64,000 bases of DNA from Candidatus Pacearchaeota archaeon (GCA_038886195.1 JAVZYK010000001.1:163456-227455); one strand, 5' to 3'. Positions 1-18,680 are shown, numbered from the stretch's first letter. The notes: generated by a model not told the origin, from the letters alone. Numbers and translations are program-made.

Positions 1-532
1 TATCATTTGTAAGATAATCGACTTTTTTTTCTACTTTTAAATTAGATTCTATTTCTATTTCTTTAAGGGGAGCTGGATTGCCTATTATTGGAACGTGAGA
101 ATCTAAATTTATTTTTGCCTTAGGCATTTTTTTTAACTTAAAGTTCGCATCTACTGATTTTGTAGCAAGAGCTATTTCTTGCATTTTTTCTAAGAATTTT
201 GTTTTTTTAGCGGCTTTTGGTGATTTAATTTCTGAGACGAATCTTGAATAAATCATTCTTGATCTGTATGATAGTATATCTTGGATAGTTGCTTTTCTGG
301 CATGCCAATATTCTGGCATGCTTAAATATTCTGTATTTCCGTATTCGTTTGGTGCTATAATGCCGGCAAAAACATAAGGATAATTATATTGACCCACAAA
401 AATCTCTGGAGGAGACGAACCTGAAAATTCTAAAGAAATTTTAGGCCTGTATTGTTTTAATTGTTGTAGAATTTTACAACTTCTACCACACCATCCACGA
501 CCTTTACATCTAATACATAGATCTGAATTCAT
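1..532 (-). CDS. Conserved archaeal protein, 3'-truncated by the window edge; N-terminal Cys cluster (CIRCKGRGWCGRSC), possibly NreA-like
   Basis: My own translation of the minus strand from the ATG at 530-532: MNSDLCIRCKGRGWCGRSCKILQQLKQYRPK... runs with no stop to position 1. Absent from the ORF track because it is incomplete. The NreA assignment rests on my recollection of that family's N-terminal CxxCKG..CG..C motif. Confidence 0.45.
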   Translation of the reverse strand, partial: MNSDLCIRCKGRGWCGRSCKILQQLKQYRPKISLEFSGSSPPEIFVGQYNYPYVFAGIIAPNEYGNTEYLSMPEYWHARKATIQDILSYRSRMIYSRFVSEIKSPKAAKKTKFLEKMQEIALATKSVDANFKLKKMPKAKINLDSHVPIIGNPAPLKEIEIESNLKVEKKVDYLTND

Positions 533-602
533 ATAAAATGAAAAAATTAAGAATTAAAATAGTTTTTCCTCACTTTTTAATTTTACCCTGCTTTTTTGAT
601 TT

Positions 603-794
603 TTATCCCTTCAAATCACTGATCCCAATAATCAAAAAGATTATTCCAAACAAAACAATAAAAACCACTATTCCTCCTTTTAAAAACTCCAATGCCGCAA
701 TACCCCAACTATAAAAGAGAGGTACTGATGTTACTATTAAAATAGGCAAAACTATCAATATTATTCCTAACAAAATTTCAATCCACTTGTTCAT
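603..794 (-). CDS. Small hydrophobic membrane protein with two predicted TM helices
   Basis: 63-aa ORF made of two long hydrophobic stretches separated by a short loop, with a clean start and stop. Confidence 0.35.
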   Translation of the reverse strand: MNKWIEILLGIILIVLPILIVTSVPLFYSWGIAALEFLKGGIVVFIVLFGIIFLIIGISDLKG

Positions 795-879
795 AAAAAG
801 GTTAAACAGTTTTTATTTTTAAATTTTTTTATTTTTTAAATATCTAAAAATTTAAAAAGCCAAGATTGTTATAATAAAA

Positions 880-2835
880 ATGGAAAAAACGGGTGATAAA
901 ATAGTCATAGGTTTATTGATTATTGTGCTATTATCTCTTATAATATTTTTTTTAAGCCCAAAATTAATTATAGATGGTAAAGCGACAGCACCGCCGCCAC
1001 ACACATATCCTGAAAGAAGCGGCCATGTATGCGGTAATGGAAATTGTGAAAGTGGTGAAAATTACTATGATTGTCCAGAAGATTGTTGCGGCGAGGAAGA
1101 TATGCAAGTTAGAACACAAAATTCGTGTTGTGAAGGTTTAACTGCCGTTATAGATGTTTGTGAATTTGAATGGCCCAAAGAAGAAAAAGTGGAATTGCCT
1201 GTTTTGCCTCCAACACCTCCTTCTACAGAAGCTATAAAAGAATTCCCTCCAGGCACTGGGGCAGCTATAGCTCCTCCTCAACAAATTCCTGAAAAATATT
1301 GTTGGTTTTGTGTGAATTGTGGTGATGGTAAATGTAGTAAACATGAAACGGGCGAGAATTGTGCTATAGATTGTGCTGTTTGCGGTAACGGTATTTGTGA
1401 GTCTCCTAAAGAAACTTATGAAAATTGTCCAGAAGATTGTTGTGCACAAGCAGGTTATAGAGGAAAAGCTCCTGTAAAATGTTGTGAAGGTTTAAGAAAT
1501 ATTGATCCTTGCGATGTTCCTAATCCGCCTCAATATTGCACTATAACGATGAAACAAGAAGCCTGTATTAATTGTGGCAACGGCATTTGTGAAGAATATG
1601 AGAATGTTAAAAATTGTCCAGAAGATTGTTTATCTGTCGTAGCCAATTGCGAAGATTTGCCTAAATTAGAGATTTCTGCTTTAGATAGAAATGACAAAAT
1701 TGAATTTTGGTGGCGAGCTGACAGCATAATTCCTGAATCTAGAGTTTATATTAAAGAAGCTGATGAATGTATTAGTCAAGAATGCAATTTCGGTCAAGAA
1801 AATTTAATAATAAATAATTATCAACCGGGAACATCGCCTCAAGAATACTTTATTGATATGCCTCAAGATAATTTAAAATTTTATAAGTTTATTTCTAAAG
1901 TAAAAATTGGACCGAAAGAGGCCAATTGCAAGCCAGAATGTATGTTCATTGATAGTGACAGTGAAGGATTTTATGATCCTTGTTTTGAAGCACCAAAGTT
2001 GTTAAAATACAGCTCTTGCGCTAACAAAGAAGCTCATTGCTGCTTCAAAGGAACAAGAAGCGAAGGTTGGTATGATGTCGATTGTGATAAAGCTACAGAA
2101 GAAAATTTAATCACATATGATTCGACTTGTCATCTTGGAGCCATGCTTTGCGAACAGGAATCGGATTTAATGGTTAAATATACTCAAGAATTTAAAAAGC
2201 CAGAAGAAAGAGGAGCTTTAACTGCCAGAACTGGAGTTAATTGGTTACATTTTGTAAATTTTGGCGGAATAGTTTCAAGCGATCAGTTGCTTAAAATCGG
2301 AGGCTCGCCTTTTGATTATGTTGCTTATTGGGATCCAGAAAAACAAGAGCAGCACGGAACAGCAGAAGGCGATCCAAAAATGGTTTGCGAACAAAAGCCA
2401 GGACAAAAACAAGGCGTTTGTTATCTTGAGCGAGTCTTTACCGGCGTCTTTACAATGAAACGCGGCCATCCTTATTTCGTCTCACTTCGAGTTCCTCAAT
2501 TTGACATGACTTATGTCGGCAAAATTCCTGAACATGTGACGTTTGAGTTCAAGTATGGGCCGAGCAACTCAGGGCATGCTAATTATATTGTTCTTCCTTT
2601 AGACACGACAATAAAAACAGCAAAAGACTTATGTGAAGCTAAAGCAGACAACGGCCAAGATTTAATGAGCGATGATGATAACATTGGTTTCTGGGATGTT
2701 GAGCAACAAAAAATAATCATGCCTGCGGCAAGATGTTTTGAAATTAAAAATGTTCCTGGTTATAACTTTAATCTTGAAGCAGGCAAGATTTATTTAATAA
2801 CAGTTCCTGGAGACAGAACTTGGACACAAAAATAA
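880..2835 (+). CDS. Secreted or signal-anchored cysteine-rich repeat protein
   Basis: N-terminal hydrophobic anchor. At least four repeats of the pattern C-[GIN]-N-C-G-[ND]-G-x-C-E-x(4-8)-NCPEDC, for example CGNGNCESGENYYDCPEDCCG and CINCGNGICEEYENVKNCPEDC, followed by a Cys-rich C-terminal half of about 380 aa. The repeats resemble Myxococcus-type CxxCGDG...EECD repeats (DUF4215-like). Confidence 0.6.
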   Translation: MEKTGDKIVIGLLIIVLLSLIIFFLSPKLIIDGKATAPPPHTYPERSGHVCGNGNCESGENYYDCPEDCCGEEDMQVRTQNSCCEGLTAVIDVCEFEWPKEEKVELPVLPPTPPSTEAIKEFPPGTGAAIAPPQQIPEKYCWFCVNCGDGKCSKHETGENCAIDCAVCGNGICESPKETYENCPEDCCAQAGYRGKAPVKCCEGLRNIDPCDVPNPPQYCTITMKQEACINCGNGICEEYENVKNCPEDCLSVVANCEDLPKLEISALDRNDKIEFWWRADSIIPESRVYIKEADECISQECNFGQENLIINNYQPGTSPQEYFIDMPQDNLKFYKFISKVKIGPKEANCKPECMFIDSDSEGFYDPCFEAPKLLKYSSCANKEAHCCFKGTRSEGWYDVDCDKATEENLITYDSTCHLGAMLCEQESDLMVKYTQEFKKPEERGALTARTGVNWLHFVNFGGIVSSDQLLKIGGSPFDYVAYWDPEKQEQHGTAEGDPKMVCEQKPGQKQGVCYLERVFTGVFTMKRGHPYFVSLRVPQFDMTYVGKIPEHVTFEFKYGPSNSGHANYIVLPLDTTIKTAKDLCEAKADNGQDLMSDDDNIGFWDVEQQKIIMPAARCFEIKNVPGYNFNLEAGKIYLITVPGDRTWTQK

Positions 2836-2893
2836 TTGTAACTTAACAATAGTAAAACAAAAGATTTATAAAGTTCTTTGAATTGTTTTACAA

Positions 2894-3847
2894 ATGAAAA
2901 TTGTCAAACCTTTGATTACGGCAGGATTAATAGGATTAATTTCAGAAGTTGGCGCTCAAACAATAGGACAGAGAGTTTGGGATGCACACAATGGAGTAAG
3001 TTCTAATGGAACAATTGTCAATTGCTGGGTTAATAATGGAAGTTCTGGAATTCAAAAAGATACTGTTGATATCTATGGTAATTGGTGGGTACCAGCAGGC
3101 AATTTTAATCCACCGCCAGTTGCAGGTGATACAATAAAATCAGTTGATACTCTTGTTTATGGCGGAATAATTTATACAGGAAGGATGAGATGTCTTTATA
3201 CTGGAAGTAATACTAATATTCCAACTGGCTTTTTAGATGATCCTAACAAAAACGTTGTTGCTTTGAGTGTTGGAGCAAATAAAGTCAAAAACAGAAGTTT
3301 AAGGCCGCAATACAAAATGAATGCAAAAGGATGGCTTCAAAAAAATCCTAATCAGAAGATTCAGTTTATTAATTATTTTAGAAGGGCTTTAGGACAAGAC
3401 AGTTTGGCTATTGACACTACAGACATTCATAATCAGCTTTATTTCAATCTTGAAAAACAAGATTCAATTTGGCGCCAAGGAGATGTTTTTATAACAATGA
3501 TTTATCAGATCAAAGGCGACACAATGTGGTATCAATATTTCAGTCAAGTTATTGATACGACAAAATATGGCAGGGCATCTATAGTTGATTCTTTAAGATA
3601 TACTGCTGATTCAATGATCATCGGCATAGTTGAAGAAAAGTTAGAAAATAAAGTCAAAGAAGGCTTAATTATTAAACCAAATCCTGCAAGGAATTATCTT
3701 ATTTCAACTAAAGAAGCCATTTTATATGATGCTTTGGGAAGAAAAATTAAGAAAATAGATAAAGGTAAAAACAATCTTGATTTGAATTCTGGAGTTTATT
3801 TTGTTAAGAAAGATGAGGATATTGAAAAGTTAGTGATTTACAAGTGA
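2894..3847 (+). CDS. Secreted protein with a T9SS-type (Por secretion) C-terminal sorting-domain-like tail
   Basis: Signal peptide MKIVKPLITAGLIGLISEVGAQ. The C-terminal ~70 aa, KPNPARNYLIS...ILYDALGRKIKKID...LNSGVYFVKK, fits the NPA...YD..GR.V......L..GvYfv pattern of Por_Secre_tail/TIGR04183 domains. Confidence 0.5.
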   Translation: MKIVKPLITAGLIGLISEVGAQTIGQRVWDAHNGVSSNGTIVNCWVNNGSSGIQKDTVDIYGNWWVPAGNFNPPPVAGDTIKSVDTLVYGGIIYTGRMRCLYTGSNTNIPTGFLDDPNKNVVALSVGANKVKNRSLRPQYKMNAKGWLQKNPNQKIQFINYFRRALGQDSLAIDTTDIHNQLYFNLEKQDSIWRQGDVFITMIYQIKGDTMWYQYFSQVIDTTKYGRASIVDSLRYTADSMIIGIVEEKLENKVKEGLIIKPNPARNYLISTKEAILYDALGRKIKKIDKGKNNLDLNSGVYFVKKDEDIEKLVIYK

Positions 3848-3962
3848 TTTGGCGGCCATCCTTATTTCTTTCATTTTTCTTATAAAATAAGAAACTTTAA
3901 AAATACCTTTTCTTTATCTTTAAAATAATCTTTAAAATAAAAAAGAAAAATAGGAACAAAAA

Positions 3963-4544
3963 ATGAGATCAGCTTACAGCTATATTTCAGAGTTATGGAA
4001 AAGGCCGAAAGAATCTTTAGGAAAGTTATGGAGAGAAAGACTTATAGAATGGCGTAAAAGTGAGACGGTTGTTAGAGTTGATAAACCTACTCGATTAGAT
4101 AGAGCTAGAGCTCTTGGCTATAAAGCAAAACCGGGTTTTGTGATTGTGAGAGTTAGAGTAAGAAGAGGCGGCCATAAAAGACCGAGGCCAAGAGCTGGTA
4201 GAAGAAGCAAAAGAATGACTATAAGAAAAACACTCAAGATGAATTATCGATGGATAGCTGAACAAAGAGCTGCAAGAAAGTTCCCTAATTTAGAAGTGCT
4301 TAATTCATATTGGCTTGCTAAAGATGGCAATTATGCTTGGTATGAAGTTATTTTAGTTGATCCAAACAGGCCAGAAATAAAAGCAGATAAAAATATTGGT
4401 TGGATTGCAAGCAAGAAACACAAAGGCAGAGTATTCCGTGGATTAACAAGCGCTGCGAGAAAATCAAGAGGATTGAGAAAAAAAGGTAAAAGAGCAATAA
4501 AAGTCAGACCTTCTTTAAGAGCGCATGAAAGAAAAGGCAAGTAA
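3963..4544 (+). CDS. rpl15e: 50S ribosomal protein L15e
   Basis: [16 protein letters not shown]...[29 protein letters not shown] matches the conserved L15e N-terminus. 193 aa and highly basic. Confidence 0.9.
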
Positions 4545-4605
4545 TTAAATACTTAAACACACAAAAATTTAAATAGATGACTATTCTTTCTTTTAGTAAT
4601 AAAAA

Positions 4606-4761
4606 ATGGTAGAATATCAATGTGAAGCTTGTGGTTATAGATTTTATAGAGAAAGGTTGCCTTTTAGATGTCCTTATTGTGGTAAAGAATCAAGCATAAG
4701 ACCTTCTCCTAGTGCAGAAGAAATTATGAACGAAATCGAAAAAGAAGAAGCAACTAAATAG
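4606..4761 (+). CDS. rpoP: Small zinc-ribbon protein, probably RNA polymerase subunit P (RpoP/Rpb12 family)
   Basis: 51-aa ORF not in the track: MVEYQCEACGYRFYRERLPFRCPYCGKESSIRPSP.... The Y-x-C-x2-C-x2-F...RCPYCG...RP layout is typical of archaeal RpoP. It sits between rpl15e and disA. Confidence 0.45.
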   Translation: MVEYQCEACGYRFYRERLPFRCPYCGKESSIRPSPSAEEIMNEIEKEEATK

Positions 4762-4882
4762 ATTTTAGATTTTATTTTATAAAAGAACATCTTGTTTGAA
4801 GAAAAGAATTCTTAAATTCTGAATTAAAGAAAATTTATTTAAACTCAATTTTGTTTATTTTTTATAAAAAAGAAGTGAGAAA

Positions 4883-5992
4883 ATGTTAAATAGTGATAAA
4901 GAAAATTTTAAAGAAGAGCTCGAATTAAAAGCAATTGAGGATGAAAAAAAAGAACGAGAATTTGAAGAACTTTTAGATGTAATAAGGCTATTGACTCCTG
5001 GAACTCCTCTTCGTGCCGCTATTGATGATATTGCTCGTGCTGGAATGGGCGCTTTAATTGTTTTAGGCGATTCTCCAGAAGTTTTGAAAATTAAAAATGG
5101 TGGAATAAAAATTGATTGTAAATTTACGCCACAACAACTAGTAGAGCTCTGTAAGATGGACGGAGCAATTATTTTATCAGATGATTTAAAAAAAATAGTT
5201 TATTGCAATACTCAACTTGTTCCAGATCCCAACATAGAAACTAATGAAACGGGTACAAGACACAGGGCGGCTGAACGTACAGCAAAACAAACTTCTAGAC
5301 CAGTAATTGCAATATCAGAAAGAAGAAAAACTACAAGCCTTTATTATAAAAATATAAAATATCAATTAAGAAATTCTGATGAAATTTTAAACAAAGCAAC
5401 AGAAACTCTTAGAATGTTAGAAAAACATAAAGAAATTTTGAATGAATTGCTTATCAATCTCAATATTATGGAACTTACAAATTTCGTAAGTCTTAATGAA
5501 GTAGTTTTATGTATTCAAAGAATGGAAATTATTTCTAGAATTACAAGAACAATAAAAAAATATATTATTGAATTGGGAGCCGAGGGCAATTTAGTTAAAA
5601 TTTTGCTCAAGGAAATTATAAAGGGTTTGGAAAAAGAGAAAGATTTGTTATTGAAGGATTATAGTAGAAACTGGGGCTTTACAAAAACCGCATTGCCATC
5701 TTTAACTCTTGATGAGTTAATTGAGCCAGAAAATATTATAAGAATTTTACTTTATTCTAGTCCAACAGATCCTGTAAAACCAAAAGGTTACCGATTATTG
5801 TCTAAGACTTCACTAAATGAAGAAACTATAGAGATTCTTGTAAATAATTTCGGAACTTTACAAAATTTAATGGAAACTTTGAGCCTGCAATCAAATAAAC
5901 TGGTAGAAATTATTGGAGAAAAAGATACAAAAAAATTAGTAAGAGATTTTGAAAATTTGAAGGAGCAAGCTCTAGTTGGAAAGAAAATTTAA
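4883..5992 (+). CDS. disA: DisA-type diadenylate cyclase (DAC domain plus C-terminal HhH)
   Basis: LTPGTPLRAAIDDIARAGMGALIVLGDSPEV...KMDGAIILSDD...ETGTRHRAAERTAKQT reproduces the DisA_N DGA and RHR catalytic motifs. The C-terminus, LVNNFGTLQNLMETLSLQSNKLVEIIGEKDTKKL, is HhH-like. Confidence 0.75.
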   Translation: MLNSDKENFKEELELKAIEDEKKEREFEELLDVIRLLTPGTPLRAAIDDIARAGMGALIVLGDSPEVLKIKNGGIKIDCKFTPQQLVELCKMDGAIILSDDLKKIVYCNTQLVPDPNIETNETGTRHRAAERTAKQTSRPVIAISERRKTTSLYYKNIKYQLRNSDEILNKATETLRMLEKHKEILNELLINLNIMELTNFVSLNEVVLCIQRMEIISRITRTIKKYIIELGAEGNLVKILLKEIIKGLEKEKDLLLKDYSRNWGFTKTALPSLTLDELIEPENIIRILLYSSPTDPVKPKGYRLLSKTSLNEETIEILVNNFGTLQNLMETLSLQSNKLVEIIGEKDTKKLVRDFENLKEQALVGKKI

Positions 5993-6007
5993 ATTAAATG
6001 TAAAAAA

Positions 6008-7054
6008 ATGATAAGTCAAAAACAAATAGAACAAGTAAGAACATTTCTGGAAAAAACGCAAAATCCTTTGTTTTTTTTTGATAATGATGTAGATGGCTTG
6101 GCTTCTTTTCTTTTGCTTCGTAGATTTTGTGATAAAGGAAAAGGCATTGCTATTAAAAGCTTTCCTGATTTGAATACTTCTTATTCTCGTAAAATCGAAG
6201 AATTTAAGCCAGATTATATTTTTGTTCTAGACAAACCATTGATTGAGAAAGGTTTTAGAGAAGCAGCACAACAATTCAATATTCCTATAATATGGATAGA
6301 TCATCATCCAATTCCAGATTATGCAAATGAAAATAACATTTACTATTTCAATCCTTTGACAGAAGGAAAAATTAATGAGCCAGTATCTTATATATGTTAT
6401 AAAATAACGGGAAGAAAAGAAGATGAATGGATAGCAATGATAGGCTGTCTTTCTGACTGGTTTATTCCTGATTTTTCTGAAAATTTCATTAAAGAATATC
6501 CTGAACTATTTTCCAATATAAAAAGTCCTGCAAAGGCTCTGTATGAAACAGAACTTGGAAAAATAATTAAAATTCTTAGTTTTGCATTAAAAGATAGAAC
6601 AAGCAATGTAGTTAAGATGTTAAAAAATTTGCTTACAATTAAAAATCCCAGAGAATTATTAGATGCAAGTTCTCCTAAGATGGTTTCTATATATAAACGA
6701 TTTAATCAAATAAACCGAAGATATGAAAAAATATTAAACAAAGCTAAAGAACTTGCCAAAAATCATAAAAGATTAATTTTCTTCCAATATGGAGGAGATT
6801 TAAGTCTTAGTTCAGAAATTTCTAATGAATTAATATATCTTTTTCCAGATAGAGTAGTTGTTGTTGCATACATTAAAGGAACTAGAGCCAATGTATCAGT
6901 AAGAGGAGTATTTATGAATGTTAGAGAACTAGTGGCAAAGGCTTTAGAAGGAATCGAATCGACAAGTGGCGGCCATGAACATGCCTGTGGAGCTACTTTG
7001 CAAGTTGAAGACTTGCCAAAATTTAGAGACAATTTAATAAAACTTTTAAAATGA
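6008..7054 (+). CDS. DHH/DHHA1 family phosphoesterase (NrnA/DhhP-like; candidate c-di-AMP/pApA phosphodiesterase)
   Basis: Motif I FFFDNDVDGLAS, motif III WIDHHP, and DHHA1 GGHEHACGA. At 348 aa it matches the NrnA/DhhP size class rather than RecJ. It starts 16 nt after the disA stop. Confidence 0.75.
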   Translation: MISQKQIEQVRTFLEKTQNPLFFFDNDVDGLASFLLLRRFCDKGKGIAIKSFPDLNTSYSRKIEEFKPDYIFVLDKPLIEKGFREAAQQFNIPIIWIDHHPIPDYANENNIYYFNPLTEGKINEPVSYICYKITGRKEDEWIAMIGCLSDWFIPDFSENFIKEYPELFSNIKSPAKALYETELGKIIKILSFALKDRTSNVVKMLKNLLTIKNPRELLDASSPKMVSIYKRFNQINRRYEKILNKAKELAKNHKRLIFFQYGGDLSLSSEISNELIYLFPDRVVVVAYIKGTRANVSVRGVFMNVRELVAKALEGIESTSGGHEHACGATLQVEDLPKFRDNLIKLLK

Positions 7055-7959
7055 AAAAATCAATTAATGATAAAGAGTTAATGAAGAAAATAGGAATTGA
7101 TAAAAGATTGTTGTCATTATTTAAAAAAAGAAGGGAGGAAGCTTTGAAAGAAGCTAAAGAAATAAAAAAACATTTTTTTGAAAAGAAAATAAGAGTTCTT
7201 GGAATAAATGGCTCGAGGCGCATTAAAAATGATTGCCCAGCAGAAGATTCAACAACAGAATGGCTTCTTGATAAATGTTTAGATGAGGCAAAAAAACTGG
7301 GAGCTGAGGTAAAGAAAATTAATTTAATGGAATATAATATCGAACCTTGTAAAGGCTGCTATAGCACAACAAACACTCAATGTCATTACAAATGCACTTG
7401 TTACCCTGAAGGCGAATATGGAGATGATATGACTAATAAATTATACGATATTGTTTCGTGGGCTGATGTTATTGTTTTTGCAACACCAGTTCATAATTTT
7501 AAAATCTCTTCTCATATGTCTTTATTTCTTGACAGATTAATAAGTATGGACGGAAGTCTCGCTCCTGCAGACATATATAATGTTAAAAATAAGAAAATTA
7601 ATATAAAACATACTAAATTTATAGAGTTAACTGGAAATGAAAAATTTGGATCTGGATTTTTAAGAAGATTAACAGGAAAAATAGCTGGAATTATAGTTTC
7701 TGGCCATGAGGTTGGCGCAAGTATGGTGATATCTTCTCTTTTTATGACTTTAAATCATTTTGGAATGGTTTTCCCACCATTTAGTAATATGTATGCAATT
7801 AATACTATATGTGAAGGAACGTATAAAGATAAAGAAAAATTAAGAAACGAGTGTTATGAAAAAGAGGCTAGACGATTGGCAAAGAATTTAATTACTGCTG
7901 CAAAAGTATTAAAAAGAAATAATGATTATTGGTGGGTTTATGATGGAAAAAGCAATTAA
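7051..7959 (+). CDS. Flavodoxin-like fold NAD(P)H-dependent FMN reductase / iron-sulfur flavoprotein-like
   Basis: RVLGINGSRR...ADVIVFATPVHNFKISSHMSLFLDRL is the FMN_red/flavodoxin-like signature. An extra Cys cluster, CKGC...C..C.C, is as in Isf proteins. Its start overlaps the stop of the upstream DHH gene by 4 nt. Confidence 0.6.
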   Translation: MKKSINDKELMKKIGIDKRLLSLFKKRREEALKEAKEIKKHFFEKKIRVLGINGSRRIKNDCPAEDSTTEWLLDKCLDEAKKLGAEVKKINLMEYNIEPCKGCYSTTNTQCHYKCTCYPEGEYGDDMTNKLYDIVSWADVIVFATPVHNFKISSHMSLFLDRLISMDGSLAPADIYNVKNKKINIKHTKFIELTGNEKFGSGFLRRLTGKIAGIIVSGHEVGASMVISSLFMTLNHFGMVFPPFSNMYAINTICEGTYKDKEKLRNECYEKEARRLAKNLITAAKVLKRNNDYWWVYDGKSN

Positions 7960-8893
7960 AATGGAATTCAAAGAGATTAAGCACATTAAAATTGTAAATG
8001 GAATAAAAGTTTCTGAACTTGTGAATAGAATGAAAAATGTTGGATTTGGTGCTAAAAATTTAGCAGAAGCTTCAAATATTCTTGAAACAGCAATCAGAGA
8101 TAAAGAATGTAAATTATTTTTTGGAATGGCCGGCGCTCTTGTGCCTGGAGGAATGAGAGAGATAGTGATTGATATGTTAAGAAAAGAATTTGTTGATGTT
8201 TTTGTTACAACGGGGGCAAATTTAACTCACGATTTAATTGAAGCTCTTGGATTTAAACATTATCAAGGATCAGCCAATGTTGATGATGTTGAATTAAATA
8301 AAAAAGGCATTGACAGAATATATAACGTTTTTATGAAAAATCAAGTTTATGAACATCTAGAAAAATTTTTTACTAAAAATTTTGATGAATTATCGAAAAC
8401 AACTTCACCAAGAGAATTTTTATGGAAACTTGGAGAGTTAGTTCATAAAAAAAGCATTTTAAAAATTTGTTACGAAAGAAAAATTCCCATCTTTTGTCCA
8501 GCATTAACAGATTCTGGAATTGGTTTAATGGTTTGGGGCCAACTTATTAGAAAAAGGAAAATAGAGTTGGATTTTTTTAAAGATCTGGCCGAAATTATAG
8601 AAATATCTTGGAGTGCTAAGAAGACTGCTGTTTTGTATATTGGTGGAGGAGTTCCTAAAAATTACATTCAACAAGCTTTACAGTTTACAAAACCAGCAAT
8701 TTATGGAGTTCAAATCACTACAGACAGAGCAGAACCTGGCGGTTCTAGTGGAGCTTCACTTAAAGAAGGAATTTCTTGGGGAAAGATGTCTAGAAAGGCA
8801 AAATTTGTAGATGTTTTTTGTGATGCTACTATAGCTTTACCTTTGCTTTACGCTTCGTTAATAGATAAATTAAAAATAAAAAAAGAGGGTTAG
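7922..8893 (+). CDS. dys: Deoxyhypusine synthase
   Basis: FFGMAGALVPGGMREIVIDMLRKEFVDVFVTTGANLTHDLIEAL and YIGGGVPKNY...GGSSGASLKEGISWGKM correspond to the DHS NAD/spermidine-binding motifs. The true start may be the internal Met near 7940-7943 (MMEKAIK). Confidence 0.8.
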   Translation: MIIGGFMMEKAIKMEFKEIKHIKIVNGIKVSELVNRMKNVGFGAKNLAEASNILETAIRDKECKLFFGMAGALVPGGMREIVIDMLRKEFVDVFVTTGANLTHDLIEALGFKHYQGSANVDDVELNKKGIDRIYNVFMKNQVYEHLEKFFTKNFDELSKTTSPREFLWKLGELVHKKSILKICYERKIPIFCPALTDSGIGLMVWGQLIRKRKIELDFFKDLAEIIEISWSAKKTAVLYIGGGVPKNYIQQALQFTKPAIYGVQITTDRAEPGGSSGASLKEGISWGKMSRKAKFVDVFCDATIALPLLYASLIDKLKIKKEG

Positions 8894-10816
8894 ATGAAAA
8901 AAAATATTCTTAAATTATTTATAACAATTTTAATAATTTCATTTACTTTTAATTTTGTTTCAGGACAAGAGCTTAATCAAGAATTTAATAGTTCTATAAA
9001 AAAAATAGATTTATTGATGAATATTTCCAGCACCATCTATAGTGAAGCTGAAAAAATTATAGTTAATTTAACTTTATTTCCCAGAGAAAATGAAAATTGT
9101 ATTGTTAATTTAAAAACAAAACCTGTAGCTGATATAGGAGATGAATTCATAATTTTCAACTTTAGTGAAAAAGGAAAATTAAACTATGTGGTTGAGTCTA
9201 AAATTAGTAGTGAGTTTTTATTTAAGAAAATTAATAATGTTGTTTTACCTTTTAACGTTCCTTCAGAACTAGAAATTTATACGAGAAATTCTGAATATAT
9301 TGTTATAGATTCGTATATTAAAAATAAAGCTTATCAGTTAGTGGCCCAAGATAAAGATGCTTTTGAAACTTTATACAACATTGCAGAATATGTAAGAAGA
9401 AATATGAACTATTCATTAGAATATCAAGAATTAAGAAATGCTTCATGGATTATGCAAGAAAAAAAAGGCGTTTGTAGTCATTATACAATTCTTTTTGTGT
9501 CAATGGCTAGGGCTCTGGGAATTCCTGCTAGATTCGTTTCCGGAGTTGCTTATAGCAATAAAGACAAAGCAATTAGAGAACATGCTTGGGCTGAAGTGTG
9601 GCTTAATGGAGAATGGATTCCCTTTGATGTAACGTTTGGTCAGTATGGTTGGCTAGATGCAAGTCATATTGTATTGAAAAGAAGTCTCGACGCAGGTTCA
9701 TCTTCTGTAGAATATAAATATGTGGGAGAAATAATTATAGAAAATTTAACAATAGATACAAAAATAATTAATCAAGAAGGTTTAGTAAATTTACCAATTG
9801 AGATAAAACTTTCTCCTTATGTAGATAAAGCTGGTTTTAATTCTTATGTTCCTATAGAAGTAACTTTGAAAAATCCTTACAATTATTATGTTTCTGTTCC
9901 TATTTATGTTTCTATTGCTACTGGTGTTTTTGGAGAGAGTGAAAAAATATTTTTACTAAAACCCAACTCAGAAACAAAAAGTTTTTTTATAATGAAAGTT
10001 CCTGATAGTTCTGAACTTAAAGAATGTGGTAAAGAATGTTTGGCAAGTTTTGAAGTTAAAGATAAATTTGGTAACTCCGCTATTACAAAAATTTTAATTG
10101 GAATAAATAAGCCCCGAATATCATTGCAAGAGGCTGAAAATATAATTAGACCGTATAGAAAGGAAATGATAGATTTTTATTGTAAGAGCAATAAAGAATT
10201 CTATTACGATTATGAAAACATCTCCATAGTATGTCAAGCAAAAAGTCCTAGAAATGCAAATGTAAGTATATGTAATCAAAATATTTGTAAGAATATTACA
10301 CTTAATGCTAATGAATTGCAGAATATTGAATTAGAAGTGCCAGCAAATATCGTTAGAAATAAATCCATTGATTCGATAGAGATGACTTGTATGATTTTAT
10401 GCATAATAACGAGAGAGCTAAAAGACATTATTGCTGTTTCTTGTATCGATATGAAGCTTCTCACTATGCCTGAAGCAAAAATCGCAACATTACAAAACAC
10501 AGAAGCAAATTATGGTAGTAAGGGTGATTTAAGTGCAATTATAGAATCAAACAACAATATAAATGCCGAACTAAAGATTGTAACGGAAAAATATATTGAA
10601 ACTAAAAAGATTTTTCTCAGAAAAGGAACAAATATAATTCCTCTAGAAATAAAAACTTGGAAATTAGACGTAGGTAAAAATTCAATATCTTTAACTTTAA
10701 AATATAAAGATATGAATGATAAAAATTATGAAGATAAAAAAGATTTTACATTTATCGTTAAAGACACGAATATTTTTACAAAGATTATTATTTGTTTAAT
10801 TCATTTATTTGACTAA
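8894..10816 (+). CDS. Secreted transglutaminase-like domain protein
   Basis: Signal peptide. A transglutaminase core with a Cys-His-Asp triad: KKGVCSHYTILFVSMARALGIPARFV, HAWAEVWL, PFDVTFG. It is followed by long beta-rich, Cys-containing C-terminal domains. Confidence 0.7.
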   Translation: MKKNILKLFITILIISFTFNFVSGQELNQEFNSSIKKIDLLMNISSTIYSEAEKIIVNLTLFPRENENCIVNLKTKPVADIGDEFIIFNFSEKGKLNYVVESKISSEFLFKKINNVVLPFNVPSELEIYTRNSEYIVIDSYIKNKAYQLVAQDKDAFETLYNIAEYVRRNMNYSLEYQELRNASWIMQEKKGVCSHYTILFVSMARALGIPARFVSGVAYSNKDKAIREHAWAEVWLNGEWIPFDVTFGQYGWLDASHIVLKRSLDAGSSSVEYKYVGEIIIENLTIDTKIINQEGLVNLPIEIKLSPYVDKAGFNSYVPIEVTLKNPYNYYVSVPIYVSIATGVFGESEKIFLLKPNSETKSFFIMKVPDSSELKECGKECLASFEVKDKFGNSAITKILIGINKPRISLQEAENIIRPYRKEMIDFYCKSNKEFYYDYENISIVCQAKSPRNANVSICNQNICKNITLNANELQNIELEVPANIVRNKSIDSIEMTCMILCIITRELKDIIAVSCIDMKLLTMPEAKIATLQNTEANYGSKGDLSAIIESNNNINAELKIVTEKYIETKKIFLRKGTNIIPLEIKTWKLDVGKNSISLTLKYKDMNDKNYEDKKDFTFIVKDTNIFTKIIICLIHLFD

Positions 10817-10854
10817 TTCAAAAACTTTAAAAATATGCATTTTATAAAATTGTT

Positions 10855-11388
10855 ATGGGATTAAGAAAAGGTCATTGTTACACAAAAATAGAACGCCCTT
10901 ATACTCGCAAATCTAAAGTTAAAAGTAAAAGTTATATCAAAACAATTCCTCCGTTGAAAATAGCGAGATTTGAGATGGGTGATGTTTCTGGATTTAATAA
11001 AGGAAAATACAATTGCTTTGTAATGCTTACAGTTACAGAGCCAGTACAAATAAGAGACAATGCTCTAGAAGCTGCGAGACAGTATGCACATAAAAAACTA
11101 GAAGAAAAATTAAAAGGAAATTTTTATTTCGTTTTAAATGCTCATCCTCATCACATTTTGCGTGAGAATAAAATGTTAACTGGGGCTGGTGCGGATAGAA
11201 TGCAAACAGGAATGAGCCATAGTTTTGGAAAGCCTATAGGAATAGCTGCTCAACTTATGAAAGGAGACAAAATTTTTAGTGTAGCTTGTAATAGGGAAGC
11301 AATTCCAGCAGTTAGAGAAATTTTAAATAAGATAAAATCAAAATTGCCAGGTAAAAAAACAATAGTTGTAGAAGAAATAAAAAAATGA
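10855..11388 (+). CDS. rpl10e: 50S ribosomal protein L10e (uL16)
   Basis: MGLRKGHCYTKIERPYTRKSK...IARFEMGD and the rest align to the L10e/L16 family. 177 aa. Confidence 0.9.
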   Translation: MGLRKGHCYTKIERPYTRKSKVKSKSYIKTIPPLKIARFEMGDVSGFNKGKYNCFVMLTVTEPVQIRDNALEAARQYAHKKLEEKLKGNFYFVLNAHPHHILRENKMLTGAGADRMQTGMSHSFGKPIGIAAQLMKGDKIFSVACNREAIPAVREILNKIKSKLPGKKTIVVEEIKK

Positions 11389-11444
11389 TTTTTTTCTAGT
11401 TAAATTTAAATAATCTCTTTTTTTACTTTATAAAAAGAGGGAAG

Positions 11445-13811
11445 ATGGTGGATGATTCAAGAAACATAGTGTGGCTTTCTGAAATAACTAAGAAAGACGT
11501 AGCGATAGCTGGTGGTAAAGGGGCAAATCTTGCTGAAATGTATAATGCAGGATTTCCTGTTCCGCCCGCTTTCATAGTGACTGCTCAGGCTTTTGTTACT
11601 TTCTTAAGAGAATCCGGATTAAAAGAAAAAATTTTATCTATAGTGAATAAAATTGACTTAGAAAATACCTCTGAACTTGAAGCCAAAGCTAAAGAAATAC
11701 AACAAATGATTATTAAAGAAAAGATGCCTGAAACTCTTGCTGATGAAATTCTTGAGGCTTACTCTTGTTTAAGTTTAGACAAAGAGATTATATCTGATAT
11801 AAAAAATCCTTTAGATTTGGCAGAAGTTAAAGGAGAAGATGTTTTTGTAGCGGTTAGAAGTAGTGCTACAACAGAGGACTTAAGTACGGCGTCGTTTGCG
11901 GGACAACAGGAAACTTTTCTTAATATTAAAGGTAAAGAAGCTTTATTAGAAGCTGTACAAAAATGTTGGGCTTCGCTTTTCACTGCAAGAGCAATTTATT
12001 ATAGAGCTAAAAAAGGATTTAGCCACGAAACTAGTTATATTGCAGTTGTAGTTCAACGAATGGTAAATTCTGATAAATCAGGAGTTATGTTTACTATCAA
12101 TCCATTAACCAATAACAAAAATGAAATTGTAATAGAATCAGTATTTGGCTTAGGCGAAGGAATAGTTTCTGGAACAATAGAGCCAGATAGTTATGTAATT
12201 GATAAAAAGAATTTAGAAGTTATAAAAAAAAGATTGGGTTTGAAAAAATTGCGTTTTGTAAAAGATGAAACAGGCAAGACGGTTAAAGAAGAATTGCCAG
12301 AAGAACTTCAGAAAAAAGAAGTTTTAGAAAGCTCTGAAATAAAAAGCCTAGCAAATTATGGAATTGACATTGAAGAGCATTATAAATGGCCTCAAGATAT
12401 TGAATGGGCAATTGAAGGAAATAAAATTTATATAGTTCAATCCAGGCCAGTAACTACGGTAGAAAAAGAAACAAAAAAAGTTGAACTGCAGGGCAAAGTT
12501 CTTATAGAGGGACTTGGAGCATCTGCCGGAGTTGCTTCTGGAGTTGTTAAAATAATTCGTGATTTAAAAGATTTGCATAAAATTAAAGAAGGAGATATTC
12601 TCGTTACACGTATGACTAATCCTGACATGGTTGTTACAATGCAAAAAGCTAAGGCAATTGTAACAGATGAAGGAGGTCTAACTGCTCATGCGGCCATAGT
12701 TTCAAGAGAAATAGGATTGCCGTGTGTTGTTGGAACAAAAAAAGCAACGCAAGTTTTAGTTGAAGGTTCTATCGTTACGGTAGATGGAACTAATGGAAAA
12801 ATATACGAAGGCGTAGTAGAAATAAAAGAAAAAGAGAAAGAAGAAAAGCCGATTAAACCAACGCCACCAGCTTTGGCTAAAATGTTGATTCCTCCTGAAG
12901 TACGAGAAGCGTTCGAATTGGCAAGAAAAAGAAAAGAAGGAATTGAAGGAGGAGAGGAAAAAATTTTAGTAAAAGTTAATTGTGATTTGCCAGAAGTTGC
13001 TGAAAAAGCTGCTGCAACTGGAGCTGATGGAGTTGGACTAGTTAGAATAGAATTTATTATTGCTAAAGGAGGAATACATCCGGCAGAATATATTAGAAGA
13101 GGTAAAAGTGAAGAATATTCTAAAATACTGGCCGATGGAATTGAAAAAATAGCGAGAGCTTTTCAAGGCAAAAGTGTTTGGGTTAGAACAAGCGATATTA
13201 GAACAGATGAATATAGAAATCTTAAAGGCTCAGAACAAGAGCCAAAAGAAGATAACCCAATGCTTGGATGGCACGGGATTAGAAGAGGTTTGGATGAACC
13301 AGAAATTTTGAAAGCCGAATTCAGAGCAATAAAATTATTGCACGATAGAGGTTATAAAAATGTGGGTGTTATGATTCCATTTGTAATTAGAACAGAAGAA
13401 ATTAAAAAAGCTAAAGAGCTATGTCGAGAGGTTGGACTTGAACCTGGAAAAGATGTTGAATTTGGAGTTATGATTGAAACTCCTGCAAGCTGTATGATTA
13501 TTGAAGAATTATGTCGAGAAGGAATTGATTTCATAAGCTTTGGTACCAATGATTTAACTCAGTTGACTTTAGGCATTGATAGAAACAATGAAAGACTGGC
13601 CCGTTTGTATGATGAGATGCATCCCGGAGTATTGAGATTGCTTGAAATGGTAATAACTGTTTGTAAGAATTATGGTGTTAAAACTTCTATTTGTGGCCAA
13701 GCCGGCTCAAGGCCCGATATGGCAAAATTCTTAGCTAAGAAAGGAATAAATAGCATTTCTGCAAATATAGATTCCGTTGCTTTAATAAGAGAGGCTATTA
13801 GAGAAATTTAA
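11445..13811 (+). CDS. ppsA: Phosphoenolpyruvate synthase (pyruvate, water dikinase)
   Basis: N-terminal GGKGANLAEM...GFPVPPAF. A PEP-utilising mobile domain with the phospho-His, GGLTAHAAIVSREIGLPCVVG. A C-terminal PEP-utilising TIM barrel, NDLTQ. 788 aa. Confidence 0.85.
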   Translation: MVDDSRNIVWLSEITKKDVAIAGGKGANLAEMYNAGFPVPPAFIVTAQAFVTFLRESGLKEKILSIVNKIDLENTSELEAKAKEIQQMIIKEKMPETLADEILEAYSCLSLDKEIISDIKNPLDLAEVKGEDVFVAVRSSATTEDLSTASFAGQQETFLNIKGKEALLEAVQKCWASLFTARAIYYRAKKGFSHETSYIAVVVQRMVNSDKSGVMFTINPLTNNKNEIVIESVFGLGEGIVSGTIEPDSYVIDKKNLEVIKKRLGLKKLRFVKDETGKTVKEELPEELQKKEVLESSEIKSLANYGIDIEEHYKWPQDIEWAIEGNKIYIVQSRPVTTVEKETKKVELQGKVLIEGLGASAGVASGVVKIIRDLKDLHKIKEGDILVTRMTNPDMVVTMQKAKAIVTDEGGLTAHAAIVSREIGLPCVVGTKKATQVLVEGSIVTVDGTNGKIYEGVVEIKEKEKEEKPIKPTPPALAKMLIPPEVREAFELARKRKEGIEGGEEKILVKVNCDLPEVAEKAAATGADGVGLVRIEFIIAKGGIHPAEYIRRGKSEEYSKILADGIEKIARAFQGKSVWVRTSDIRTDEYRNLKGSEQEPKEDNPMLGWHGIRRGLDEPEILKAEFRAIKLLHDRGYKNVGVMIPFVIRTEEIKKAKELCREVGLEPGKDVEFGVMIETPASCMIIEELCREGIDFISFGTNDLTQLTLGIDRNNERLARLYDEMHPGVLRLLEMVITVCKNYGVKTSICGQAGSRPDMAKFLAKKGINSISANIDSVALIREAIREI

Positions 13812-13876
13812 AAAGATGTATTAAAAAATAATAAAATTTTTAAACTGTCTTTTATCTTTTAGATAATTTGTAAAAA

Positions 13877-14167
13877 ATGGTTATTGATATTTATATAAAT
13901 TGCACCAAATTTCCAGAAATATTAATAACACCTATACTTACTGGTAAAAGATATGATCCTATTGAATTTAATTTTTGCAAAGATAGTATTGAAAAATTTA
14001 AAAACCTCCTAGAAAAATATGAGGGTCATTCTGAAAAATATAGAATAAATTATGTGATGTCTGAAGAACAAATTAATTTTCTTATAAAAAGAAATATAAA
14101 AGTAAAAAAAACAATAGAGGCTATAGTATGTTTATTAGAGCAACAATATAAAACTTTGAAACAATAA
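13877..14167 (+). CDS. Hypothetical protein
   Basis: 96-aa ORF with no recognisable motif. Confidence 0.35.
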   Translation: MVIDIYINCTKFPEILITPILTGKRYDPIEFNFCKDSIEKFKNLLEKYEGHSEKYRINYVMSEEQINFLIKRNIKVKKTIEAIVCLLEQQYKTLKQ

Positions 14168-14207
14168 AAAACAATAAATTTTTTAATACTATTTTCTTCT
14201 TGTTTTT

Positions 14208-14867
14208 ATGTTAGAAAAGGAGGCTATTGAAAAGGGTATTGATATTGAAGCTTTAAAGGAAGAACAAAGAAAACTTGCTAAACTCGTATCTTGTAAAGAT
14301 GCATTTGATTTTAATAACGCTACAAGATTTGCAGGCATAGATTTAGAAACATTAAAAACAAAAGAAATTCTAGCCGCTATTGCGGTAGTTGATGAAAATA
14401 TGGAAATAGTTGAAGAAAAATATGCAATTAGACCAATCAAATTTCCTTATATTCCTGGCTTTAGAGCTTATAGAGAATTGCCTTGTATTTTGGCCGCTTA
14501 TGAGAAGCTGGAAGAACAACCAGATGTTTTTTTTATAGAAGCTCAAGGAATATCTCATCCAAGAGGTTTAGGATTGGCAAGTCATTTAGGAATTAGTATA
14601 AATAGACCAGTTATAGGAATAACGAATCATATACTTATTGGTGAAGAGAGAGGCGATGATGTTATATTGAATGGAAAAGTTATAGCAAAGAAACTCATTA
14701 CAAAAGAAGGTTCGAAACCATTTTATGTTTCTGTAGGCCATATGATTTCTCTTTCTTCAGCCGTAGAGCTTGTCAAAAAATGTGTTAGAGAGCCGCATAA
14801 ACTTCCAGAGCCTCTTGTAATGGCAAGAAAAATGGCTTCAAAAATAAGAAAAGAGATAGAAAGATAA
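14208..14867 (+). CDS. nfi: Endonuclease V
   Basis: IAVVDE...FPYIPGFRAYRELP...FIEAQGISHPRGLGLASHLG...GITNHIL matches the catalytic core of the endonuclease V family. Confidence 0.8.
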   Translation: MLEKEAIEKGIDIEALKEEQRKLAKLVSCKDAFDFNNATRFAGIDLETLKTKEILAAIAVVDENMEIVEEKYAIRPIKFPYIPGFRAYRELPCILAAYEKLEEQPDVFFIEAQGISHPRGLGLASHLGISINRPVIGITNHILIGEERGDDVILNGKVIAKKLITKEGSKPFYVSVGHMISLSSAVELVKKCVREPHKLPEPLVMARKMASKIRKEIER

Positions 14868-14916
14868 TAAAAAATAAAGTCCTTTATCTTTTACTTTTTT
14901 AATTCCGCTAATTAAT

Positions 14917-15141
14917 TTATAACCCCACAACGCCTATTTTTGTAGCGATTATTTTTAATTTGTCTATGAGCTCCTTAGCAGTGTCTTCTTCTATTTTTTT
15001 GCCCTCTCCTGGTTTTATTTCTTCCTCTGTTTTTATCTCAATAAAATTAATTAAGTCTCTAATGTCGTTTTCAATTTCCATGATTCTTTGTTTTATGTTG
15101 CCATCTACTGGTTTATATTTCTTTTTAGTTGAAAGCCTCAT
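14917..15141 (-). CDS. Hypothetical small charged protein
   Basis: 74-aa K/E-rich ORF. It is more protein-like than the overlapping plus-strand ORF at 14960..15154. Confidence 0.3.
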   Translation of the reverse strand: MRLSTKKKYKPVDGNIKQRIMEIENDIRDLINFIEIKTEEEIKPGEGKKIEEDTAKELIDKLKIIATKIGVVGL

Positions 15142-15205
15142 TTTATTTAATTAATACCTCCTTTTTAATATGATGATTAAACAATAATCTTTTTTAAATT
15201 TTTTC

Positions 15206-16624
15206 TCAGTTATTATATCCATTTAATTTTATATTTATTTCTAAATGGCGCCACAATTCTGAAGGAGTTAATGTAGATAGATGTTCTTTTGCTTCTTTTA
15301 TTCCAAATTTTTTTACATCTCTAACTTCTTTTACTTTCGGCGTCATTACTAAAGCGACTGCAAATCTTGCAATTCCACTAATTAAAAATACAATTAATAT
15401 TGAAGAAAGTCCAAACAAAGTTAAATGGGTTGAAGAAATGAAACCTCCCAGTGTAGCGCCTATAAAAACTCCGATTCCAGTCAAGAGATTTGAATAAGCA
15501 ACACATAATGCCATTCTTTGACGAGTTACTGCATCATATATGAAGTTGCTAGAAGCGAGGTTAAAGCCAGCCCAAACCATTCCAGAAAAAGCTTCTATTA
15601 AAATAAGGTATGGAATTAAAGAATTTTTATTTATAAATATAGAAACAAACCACAATAAAGGCACTAAAGGAATTAGAAAAGAAGTTATTTTTGTTGCCTT
15701 TATATTACCATAGCGATCAACAAATTTTCCCCATAAAGGCATAAAAAGCAAGGAAGTTAAAGAACTTGCCAATGTAACTAGAATCCATTGAAAATAACTA
15801 AAGCCGAGTTCTTTTAACATATAAACTGCGAAAAAAGGAGAAGCAATTGCTGTAGCAAGCTGCATCAAAGCTACAAGAACTGTAAATTTGCCAAAATTGC
15901 TTTTAGGAATATAACGAATAAATTGCCAAAAACTAAAATAGTAGCCTTTTTCATAGCTAATTTTTGGTTCATATTTTTTTGAGAGAATTAGCGTTGAAAT
16001 TAATCGTGCTATAAAAGCTATAGTGAATAAAATTACAAATCCTATAAATATTTTTGTTTTTGCAAAATAATCAAGAATAAAACTGCCGGCCAACATAGAA
16101 ACGAGCGCTACAAAACCAACAATTCGGTTTCTGTTACCAAAATATTTTCCGGAATTTTCTGTCACTATGTCTTTCATCCAGGAGTTCCATGCTGGCACGA
16201 GCATTGCTCCAAATAAAGTAAGTAAAGTATAGATTATTATAAGGAGAGTTGGCGTTATAGTTGAGTTAATGTTAAAAATAAAATATAATGCTCCAATGCC
16301 GATTACAAAAAGCCACATTATTGCTTGAAGCAATGCTCCTAAAACAACAATTTTTTTTCTAGAAGTCTTTTCCATAAGTTTTGGTGTAAACATTTGAGAA
16401 AAATTTCCTAGCAAAGAAGGTAAAGAAGTTAAGAAACCTATGTGGGCATTTGTAGCACCTAGTTTTAAAGCAAAAGGAGTTATATATCTCATGCCAAGTC
16501 CTTCACTCACCGAATATGCGCAGCCTTCACGAATGCTTAATATCTTTGTTTTTTCTATTAATCTACGTTCTTTTTTAATTTTCCTTTCTTTTTTCATTTT
16601 TTGTTTGCATTTAATAAAAAACAA
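15206..16624 (-). CDS. MFS transporter
   Basis: 472 aa with about 12 hydrophobic helices arranged as two six-helix halves, typical of the major facilitator superfamily. Confidence 0.7.
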   Translation of the reverse strand: MFFIKCKQKMKKERKIKKERRLIEKTKILSIREGCAYSVSEGLGMRYITPFALKLGATNAHIGFLTSLPSLLGNFSQMFTPKLMEKTSRKKIVVLGALLQAIMWLFVIGIGALYFIFNINSTITPTLLIIIYTLLTLFGAMLVPAWNSWMKDIVTENSGKYFGNRNRIVGFVALVSMLAGSFILDYFAKTKIFIGFVILFTIAFIARLISTLILSKKYEPKISYEKGYYFSFWQFIRYIPKSNFGKFTVLVALMQLATAIASPFFAVYMLKELGFSYFQWILVTLASSLTSLLFMPLWGKFVDRYGNIKATKITSFLIPLVPLLWFVSIFINKNSLIPYLILIEAFSGMVWAGFNLASSNFIYDAVTRQRMALCVAYSNLLTGIGVFIGATLGGFISSTHLTLFGLSSILIVFLISGIARFAVALVMTPKVKEVRDVKKFGIKEAKEHLSTLTPSELWRHLEINIKLNGYNN

Positions 16625-16660
16625 ATTTATAAACTTTTTTAATTTTTAATATTTAATGAA

Positions 16661-17689: not shown

Positions 17690-17692
17690 AAA

Positions 17693-17798
17693 TGCGCCAG
17701 CCGGGATTCGAACCCGGGTAACAACCTCTCTCTATTGGGGATAATAAGGGGTATCCCCTTATTTGGGAGGGTTGTGTCTTGCCACTGGACTACTGGCG
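17693..17798 (-). tRNA. tRNA-Gly(CCC) carrying an anticodon-loop intron of about 35 nt
   Basis: Minus-strand read: GCGCCAG-TA-GTCCAGTGGCAAGAC-A-CAACC-CTCCCA[intron AATAAGGGG...AGAGAG]A-GGTTG-TTAC-CCGGGTTCGAATCCCGG-CTGGCGC-A. The acceptor and T arms pair perfectly, with discriminator A73. The intron lies at the canonical 37/38 site. Confidence 0.75.
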
Positions 17799-17868
17799 CG
17801 CAAATTACTATATATTCTTTAATAAACAAATCTTTATAAATTTTGGTCGTAGTTTAATAAAGTAAAAA

Positions 17869-18237: not shown

Positions 18238-18251
18238 AAAAGGTAAATAAG

Positions 18252-18626: not shown

Positions 18627-18680
18627 TTGAAGGTAAGGTTTTTAAAGTTCAAGACTTTGGGAAAAAGCTAAGGAAAGAAA

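Follow-up and report, generated by a model that had tools for sequence, protein, structure and literature searches.

A type IX secretion-like C-terminal tail on a predicted surface protein of a Pacearchaeota archaeon

C-terminal domains (CTDs) of type IX secretion systems (T9SS) are treated as the signature of an outer-membrane machine confined to the Fibrobacteres-Chlorobi-Bacteroidetes (FCB) group. How, then, does such a tail come to stand at the end of an archaeal protein, and what could it do there? The case analyzed here lies in a 64,000-nucleotide (nt) stretch of a Candidatus Pacearchaeota metagenome-assembled genome (MAG; GCA_038886195.1, JAVZYK010000001.1:163456-227455), referred to below as the window, in which an open reading frame (ORF) with an ATG start at positions 2894 to 3847 of the + strand encodes a 317-residue protein carrying the tail residues quoted in a preliminary description of the locus. 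The protein is identical to NCBI MEM4152671.1 (Ca. Pacearchaeota MAG, 620,194-bp contig), and the NCBI pipeline already names that entry “T9SS type A sorting domain-containing protein.” The reading that we favor, and consider probable on balance, is that of a variable surface protein that is exported by Sec and bears a tail functioning today without a T9SS.

Homology of the tail to T9SS type-A domains

Scored as a single sequence, the protein matched PF18962 (Por_Secre_tail) over residues 262 to 314 (19.1 bits, E = 1.7 × 10−3; gathering cutoff, 27) and TIGR04183 over residues 262 to 305 (22.5 bits, E = 8 × 10−5; cutoff, 23), these being its sole Pfam and NCBIfam matches. The CTD match is statistically real, yet it lies slightly under both curated thresholds. 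A homologue search with the tailed protein yielded a small family (P0001 to P0011), one member of which, P0005 (42% identical overall), clears the Pfam threshold with 29.2 bits. When a profile built solely from eight tails of this family (A1) was compared with the PDB, T9SS cargo CTDs ranked first, namely 8glk_D (E = 1.6 × 10−4, residues 3 to 74 of 75 aligned) and 8glj_D, both of them CTDs of Flavobacterium johnsoniae T9SS cargo in translocon complexes, followed by the RgpB CTDs 5hfs and 7pq4. Against 1.84 billion representative proteins, A1 retrieved 2,219 proteins at E ≤ 1 × 10−3, mostly at the extreme C terminus, and PF18962 was present in 125 of the 128 best single-stretch matches; multi-stretch matches in giant proteins were set aside, as they are probably YD/Rhs-repeat cross-matches to “YD..GR.” The AlphaFold2 (AF2) model of the tail (predicted local distance difference test [pLDDT] score of 68) had the CTDs of RgpB and NucA as its top Foldseek matches, with a probability of 0.96 to 0.98 but an E value of about 0.07.

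By the motif definitions for type-A CTDs (PMC10202324), the tail carries motif B (the PNP of KPNPARN), motif D (LYDALGRKI) and motif E with its terminal lysines (SGVYFVKK...EKLVIYK-stop), and the C terminus of the protein reads ...KKDEDIEKLVIYK. Its loops are trimmed relative to those of a CTD from a WOR-3 bacterium (P0013), and ordinary bacterial CTDs, too, can have a shorter “EEN” stretch in front of PNP. Because P0005 passes the Pfam threshold, A1 finds CTDs and the predicted fold is compatible, the last ∼60 to 73 residues are a genuine but shortened homologue of the T9SS type-A CTD. The observation in the preliminary description that the tail of this archaeal secreted protein follows the Por_Secre_tail consensus is thereby upheld as true CTD kinship.

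The sub-threshold single-sequence scores could be taken as a sign of artifact, that is, of a mis-binned or misassembled bacterial gene or of a chance resemblance to CTDs. We consider the probability of this negligible. Chance is excluded by the profile, PDB and fold evidence, and an archaeal gene for ribosomal protein L15e begins 115 nt downstream of the tailed gene on the same strand. The contig also holds an archaeal small- and large-subunit rRNA operon (16S-tRNA(Ala)-23S; positions 53343 to 57970), and the same arrangement was assembled independently in a second MAG. With a GC content of 0.33 and a third-codon-position GC content (GC3) of 0.23, the tailed gene falls inside the range of its neighbors, and this host-like composition excludes contamination and recent acquisition. 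The rRNA operon, L15e, the synteny with the sibling MAG and GC3 together led us to discard a binning or assembly error. Other genes in the window encode deoxyhypusine synthase, L10e, endonuclease V, PolX, an archaeal CCA enzyme, and aIF2-gamma and aIF5B-like factors.

The protein begins with a predicted Sec signal peptide, judged by eye and by hydrophobicity rather than with a predictor, and an equivalent N terminus is found in all of its homologues. It has two cysteines and no hydrophobic segment beyond the signal peptide; neither a C-terminal transmembrane (TM) segment nor a lipobox was found in it. No Pfam family matched the passenger. The model of residues 23 to 113 gave weak Foldseek matches to multidomain pilins and adhesins and to transthyretin-like/CnaB domains, residues 114 to 243 were modeled with low-to-moderate confidence, and a fold search with the full model returned only weak, pilin/adhesin-like matches to proteins with several immunoglobulin-like (Ig-like) domains, with poor TM-scores. 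“Adhesin-like” should be read as a loose description.

Mosaic relatives, the upstream partner and strain-level turnover

No other tail was found in the window with two family hidden Markov models (HMMs) run against all six-frame ORFs. Two protein searches with tail profiles gave short proteins only, none of them encoded on the 620-kb contig. The 620,194-bp contig as a whole holds at least two tailed proteins, P0001 and P0008 (MEM4153138.1; 467 aa, with a longer passenger and a CARDB-like insert), and a sibling MAG (GCA_038885395.1) holds at least three, namely P0175 (the orthologue), P0009 and a 338-aa protein. The tail, then, both scores with CTD models and recurs among secreted proteins, the opposite, on either point, of what would have refuted the preliminary description.

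Passenger and tail were compared separately with those of the window protein. The orthologues share more of the passenger than of the tail (passenger and tail identity, respectively: P0002, 82 and 35%; P0003, 74 and 50%; P0004, 72 and 43%), and the paralogues share more of the tail than of the passenger (P0008, from the same genome, 32 and 93%; P0009, from the sibling genome, 30 and 89%; P0011, of paralogue type and from a metagenome contig, 29 and 78%). At the DNA level, window positions 2508 to 3639 were 78.5% identical to an orthologous locus (L006), and positions 3623 to 3868 were 94.7% identical to a paralogue tail in locus L004. Since homology to L006 stops where identity to L004 begins, the breakpoint falls in the GIVEEKLENKV linker (positions 3623 to 3639). 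As far as alignment can tell, these comparisons show an exchangeable tail cassette that is homogenised among paralogues and joined to different passengers at the linker.

Relatives of the passenger are also found outside the archaea. A genuinely bacterial contig (L005, from MAG GCA_050239825.1), with a ribD-ribE-ribBA-ribH-nusB operon, carries two passenger homologues, P0010 and P0007 (39 to 41% identical), with degenerate, truncated tails. The presence of passenger homologues on a bacterial contig means that the family has crossed between domains. Between positions 6857 and 11137 of that contig, P0010 and P0007 flank a DUF6577/AbiEii module with ParE nearby, and AbiEii is also found downstream of the tailed gene in loci L001 to L003; these placements hint that the family may travel with mobile toxin-antitoxin islands across domains. 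The CTD itself is most likely of bacterial origin because it is vastly more diverse in bacteria, and it would have come from the FCB group or neighboring phyla long ago and been fully ameliorated.

Such a transfer bears on whether the tail is a functionless fossil, one of two options in the preliminary description: the decaying leftover of a bacterial T9SS cargo gene transferred into archaea of the DPANN group (Diapherotrites, Parvarchaeota, Aenigmarchaeota, Nanoarchaeota and Nanohaloarchaeota). Passenger relatives near toxin-antitoxin genes on a bacterial contig bespeak inter-domain transfer, the window protein scores under both curated thresholds, its loops are shorter than in bacterial CTDs, and key motifs or the last strand are lost in some relatives. 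Nevertheless, all tails are in frame and end exactly at a stop codon, the window tail has lost none of motifs B, D and E, nor its Lys-rich final strand, and it is the most conserved part of the protein between paralogues (93% against 32% for the passenger) and bears a fresh conversion tract, described below. The tail is also attached to several different passengers, and its fully host-like composition, in GC as in GC3, implies long persistence without degradation. A fossil is for these reasons a quite unlikely account of the tail.

The tailed gene follows a 651-aa gene at a distance of 58 nt. The partner protein has no Pfam or NCBIfam match, and its residues 51 to 250 contain four Cys-rich repeats of the form CG[ND]GxC-x(6-10)-C(P)xDC (CGNGxCE...C(P)xDC), none of them matched by Pfam. 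Its C-terminal part, here called domain X, has no Pfam or PDB match and aligns at 44 to 66% with the C termini of the genes directly upstream of the tailed gene in loci L001, L004, L006 and L002. The domain-X genes range from 1,749 aa (L001, with a beta-helix) and 1,558 aa (L004) to 184 aa (L006) and 114 aa (L002 and L003), and the sibling locus L007 has one too. Matches to a domain-X HMM were found only directly upstream of tailed genes or as remnants right after them. All close relatives examined thus have domain X right before the tailed gene, on its upstream side, and the earlier suggestion that the Cys-rich neighbor belongs to the same surface locus is borne out. The domain was missing next to a more remote tailed gene of DPANN type (L008/L009), and so the pairing is clade specific.

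Three further observations concern this partner and its surroundings. In P0012 (114 aa, from a 543-bp ENA contig), a fragment with sequence of the kind found in the giant upstream beta-helix protein (...RWNPEQQKQYGSARGN...LLPGQYLD) runs straight into a CTD tail and not into domain X, which suggests that domain X and the tail may be alternative C-terminal endings. Near the domain-X/tailed pair of L001 (positions 1 to 4047) and L004 (positions 360 to 4696) lies a conserved block of a prepilin-type peptidase (Peptidase_A24) and three unannotated proteins of ∼300 to 425 aa; one of the three has a weak CARDB match, and they may be pilin-like or surface proteins. A window gene on the − strand (positions 58710 to 61625) specifies 971 aa, among them 38 Cys and numerous N-x-S/T sequons. 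Its product starts with a signal anchor and has a TM helix at the C terminus, matches no Pfam family, is unrelated to the 651-aa Cys-rich protein and is probably another major envelope glycoprotein.

Comparison with the sibling genome gave a measure of turnover at the locus. Window positions 1 to 3868 match the sibling locus L007 (7108 to 10975) at 99.35% identity and positions 3854 to 12399 match it (12409 to 20954) at 99.95%, with identical synteny. Between these blocks, L007 holds an extra 1,433 bp that encode a second pair, consisting of a 108-aa domain-X-only protein and the 338-aa signal-peptide-plus-tail protein, with a 15-nt direct repeat, GGCCATCCTTATTTC, on either side of this additional DNA. 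Over the first 3,868 nt the two strains show 25 differences, of which the two surface genes contain 23, compared with 4 in the next 8,546 nt, so that the divergence of the gene pair is 23 per ∼2,900 coding nt versus 4 per 8,546 nt downstream. A 14-nt stretch of the tail accounts for six of the differences; it is a gene-conversion tract in which P0175 agrees with its own paralogue P0009 at each of these positions and the window copy has the P0011 variant. The alignments show that whole domain-X/tail cassettes differ between near-identical strains.

Possible roles of the tail in a cell without a T9SS

A Pfam scan of 38 window proteins (33 of the 52 listed ORFs of ≥110 aa), or ∼10% of the genome, identified no T9SS part, sortase or archaeosortase. 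Neither the T9SS core (SprA/Sov, PorV, PorU and GldK/L/M/N) nor an obvious C-terminal peptidase was seen in these proteins or in the Pfam listings of related loci. The sibling genome does have a gene for an S-layer protein (S_layer_C). T9SS genes have been reported absent from archaea (PMC11285876), and the searched literature contained no paper treating T9SS together with DPANN. A Por-CTD on a C25 peptidase of Thermoprofundales/MBG-D is listed in a table (PMC6461988); no analysis of the function, recurrence, cassette structure or evolution of archaeal CTD-like tails was found in that literature.

On the favored reading, the protein would cross the membrane via Sec in a tiny, uncultured DPANN archaeon of symbiotic type that has, as far as can be judged, a single membrane, an S-layer and no T9SS. 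Because of the single membrane and the missing T9SS, the tail would not be usable as an outer-membrane translocation signal. It would instead be a T9SS-independent, folded, Ig-like C-terminal module, most probably a retention or docking domain that holds variable proteins on the cell surface, a role suggested by the lack of any other anchor (C-terminal TM segment or lipobox). The tailed gene is the second of a two-gene cassette whose first gene encodes a membrane-anchored protein ending in domain X. Between almost identical strains, cassettes of this type undergo duplication, loss and recombination, and gene conversion keeps the tails of paralogues near-identical. The locus may in this way supply strain-level variation of surface, and possibly host-contact, proteins.

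Several points weigh against this reading. The function of the tail is inferred, not observed, and the AF2 models are of only moderate confidence (pLDDT, 66 to 68). The P0002 tail has neither PNP nor YD..GR, and truncation is seen in P0007 and P0010, the homologues from bacteria; the loss of canonical residues indicates, from sequence, that the tail is dispensable in some contexts. The documented tailed proteins number only two to three per genome; in T9SS organisms, by the TIGR04183 description, the usual number is twenty or higher. The tails could also have been homogenised by recombination with no selection for a common partner. The inspection covered 64 kb of a ∼620-kb genome and ∼40 kb of the sibling, and a processing enzyme or unusual envelope machinery may be encoded elsewhere in the genome.

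If such an enzyme existed, the tail might be a true sorting signal for a non-T9SS archaeal C-terminal peptidase or transpeptidase, with a role like that of PorU or archaeosortase, that cuts at or near VEExLENKV and attaches what precedes it to a lipid, a glycan or the S-layer. The linker upstream of the CTD is better conserved across the family than its surroundings, one tail is common to different passengers, and tails are homogenised within a genome and divergent between lineages, the same pattern as the species-specific compatibility of CTDs with their machinery in bacteria (PMC11285876). However, no candidate enzyme stands beside the tailed genes in seven related loci or in the window, the sole invariably linked gene encodes the domain-X protein, which is without protease-like features, and the known substrates amount to two or three per genome. 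The linker is also not uniquely archaeal, given the “EEN”-type stretch before PNP in bacterial CTDs. We regard enzymatic sorting, the other option in the preliminary description, as unlikely. A broader proposal, rather unlikely as well, is that DPANN archaea have given the CTD fold a new role as a genuine signal for sorting or docking that needs no T9SS, either through an enzyme acting at VEExLENKV or through docking on a partner such as the S-layer or the domain-X protein. Were this true, the locus would encode a modular, fast-recombining two-component surface appendage for host contact, and the tail would be the first bacterial outer-membrane secretion signal known to survive and work in a monoderm archaeon.

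Two other genes in the window may be mentioned beside the question of processing and anchoring. One, at positions 8894 to 10816 (+), encodes 640 aa that comprise a signal peptide, a transglutaminase-like core (PF01841, E = 2.8 × 10−26) and a second TM segment. The product may be a cysteine protease or a cross-linking enzyme, secreted or residing in the envelope; it is the sole protease-like secreted candidate within 10 kb of the tailed gene and has no link to the tail. The other, at positions 50342 to 51136 (−), encodes a bacterial-type prolipoprotein diacylglyceryl transferase, Lgt (PF01790, E = 7.5 × 10−56). Lgt, which carries out the initial step in the maturation of bacterial lipoproteins, is unusual in a DPANN archaeon and may bear on surface-protein anchoring here.

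A last alternative is mimicry, in which the CTD proteins of an epibiotic Pacearchaeote would engage T9SS or PorV-type receptors of an FCB-group host. Circumstantially, the CTD is otherwise T9SS specific, the locus is fast evolving and contact-like, and the family is shared with a bacterium. No host is known, however, and the searched literature held no supporting data; moreover, bacterial CTDs are recognized from the periplasmic side (PMC10202324), a site that an external archaeal protein would not reach. Mimicry is accordingly very improbable.

How does the favored retention or docking module compare with known systems? With type-A T9SS CTDs such as those of RgpB, NucA and RemA, the tail shares its place at the extreme C terminus, the combination with an N-terminal Sec signal peptide, a similar size class, motifs B, D and E, attachment to various passengers and, tentatively, a predicted Ig-like beta-sandwich, which in that family is seven stranded, and bona fide CTDs are its nearest neighbors in sequence and structure. 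Unlike them, it occurs in a monoderm archaeon in which no T9SS was detected, is shorter (∼60 residues after the linker), sub-threshold and loop-trimmed, is known in two to three copies per genome, has an elaborated VEExLENKV linker, and is partnered by a domain-X gene without bacterial counterpart. Other archaeal Por-CTDs (PMC6461988; PGAP names) resemble the present case in that CTD-like tails were noticed by automatic annotation; they exist as table entries or product names only. PGF-CTERM/archaeosortase A, IPTLxG-type and other exosortase-like signals likewise place one C-terminal module on several surface proteins per genome; in such signals a short motif is followed by a hydrophobic helix and then a basic tail, whereas this tail is a folded beta domain with no hydrophobic segment. 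As in pilin and adhesin cassette recombination, there are conversion tracts between paralogues, gain and loss of cassettes via short repeats, and local divergence, but no silent-cassette archive, invertase or diversity-generating element was seen here, and the recombination handles are the conserved tail and domain X.

The locus thus presents a known domain in a new context, in which its function must differ from the bacterial one, and as far as we searched, the cassette dynamics and the pairing with domain X have not been described. A second, machinery-independent use of the fold would bear on roles of the CTD beyond that of a “zip code.” In practice, the label “T9SS type A sorting domain-containing protein” is not evidence of a T9SS in archaeal or other non-FCB genomes. 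For Pacearchaeota, whose host-contact proteins are essentially unknown, this compact, fast-evolving two-gene surface cassette offers a concrete target.

Feature coordinates and neighboring genes

Table 1. Features of the tailed gene, its upstream partner and the sites of recombination, in window coordinates
Feature	Position	Strand	Remarks
Upstream partner gene	880..2835	+	651 aa, 44 Cys, N-terminal signal-anchor/TM (from residue 3)
Domain X, C-terminal ∼140 aa of the 651-aa partner	2407..2835	+	Conserved, no known family
Repeat copy 1, GGCCATCCTTATTTC	2464..2478	+	Inside domain X, encodes GHPYF
Tailed gene	2894..3847	+	317-aa protein, predicted to be secreted, all-beta, adhesin-like
Predicted Sec signal peptide, MKIVKPLITAGLIGLISEVGA/QT	2894..2956	+	By inspection: basic n-region, hydrophobic core, small residues at −3/−1
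N-terminal beta-sandwich domain (predicted), aa 23-113	2960..3232	+	AF2 pLDDT 80-91
Second passenger region, aa 114-243, predicted beta-rich	3233..3622	+	Conserved NLEKQDS and IDTTKYG in family alignment
Conserved linker GIVEEKLENKVKEGL (GIVEEKLENKV)	3623..3667	+	Passenger/tail recombination breakpoint; conserved across family
T9SS type-A-like CTD core, aa 259-317	3668..3844	+	Motifs B, D, E; ends at stop codon
Gene-conversion tract	3766..3779	+	6 differences in 14 nt; NNLDLN here, NSINLN in sibling orthologue and paralogues
Repeat copy 2, GGCCATCCTTATTTC	3854..3868	+	Just past stop codon; site of 1,433-bp cassette in sibling

Three further loci in the window were noted in passing. Shortly downstream of the tailed gene, positions 4883 to 7054 (+) encode a DisA-type diadenylate cyclase (DAC plus DisA linker) followed by a DHH/DHHA1 phosphoesterase, which looks like a pair for c-di-AMP synthesis and degradation. 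A stand-alone GGDEF diguanylate cyclase (positions 31343 to 32002, −; E = 2 × 10−47) adjoins genes for an NrdR-like repressor (positions 30790 to 31272, −) and ribonucleotide reductase (positions 28263 to 30740, −); c-di-GMP signaling and NrdR are typically bacterial. Finally, Rfam matched a 107-nt tRNA at positions 17693 to 17799 (−) with 52 bits that was not called by ARAGORN and is probably an intron-containing archaeal tRNA.

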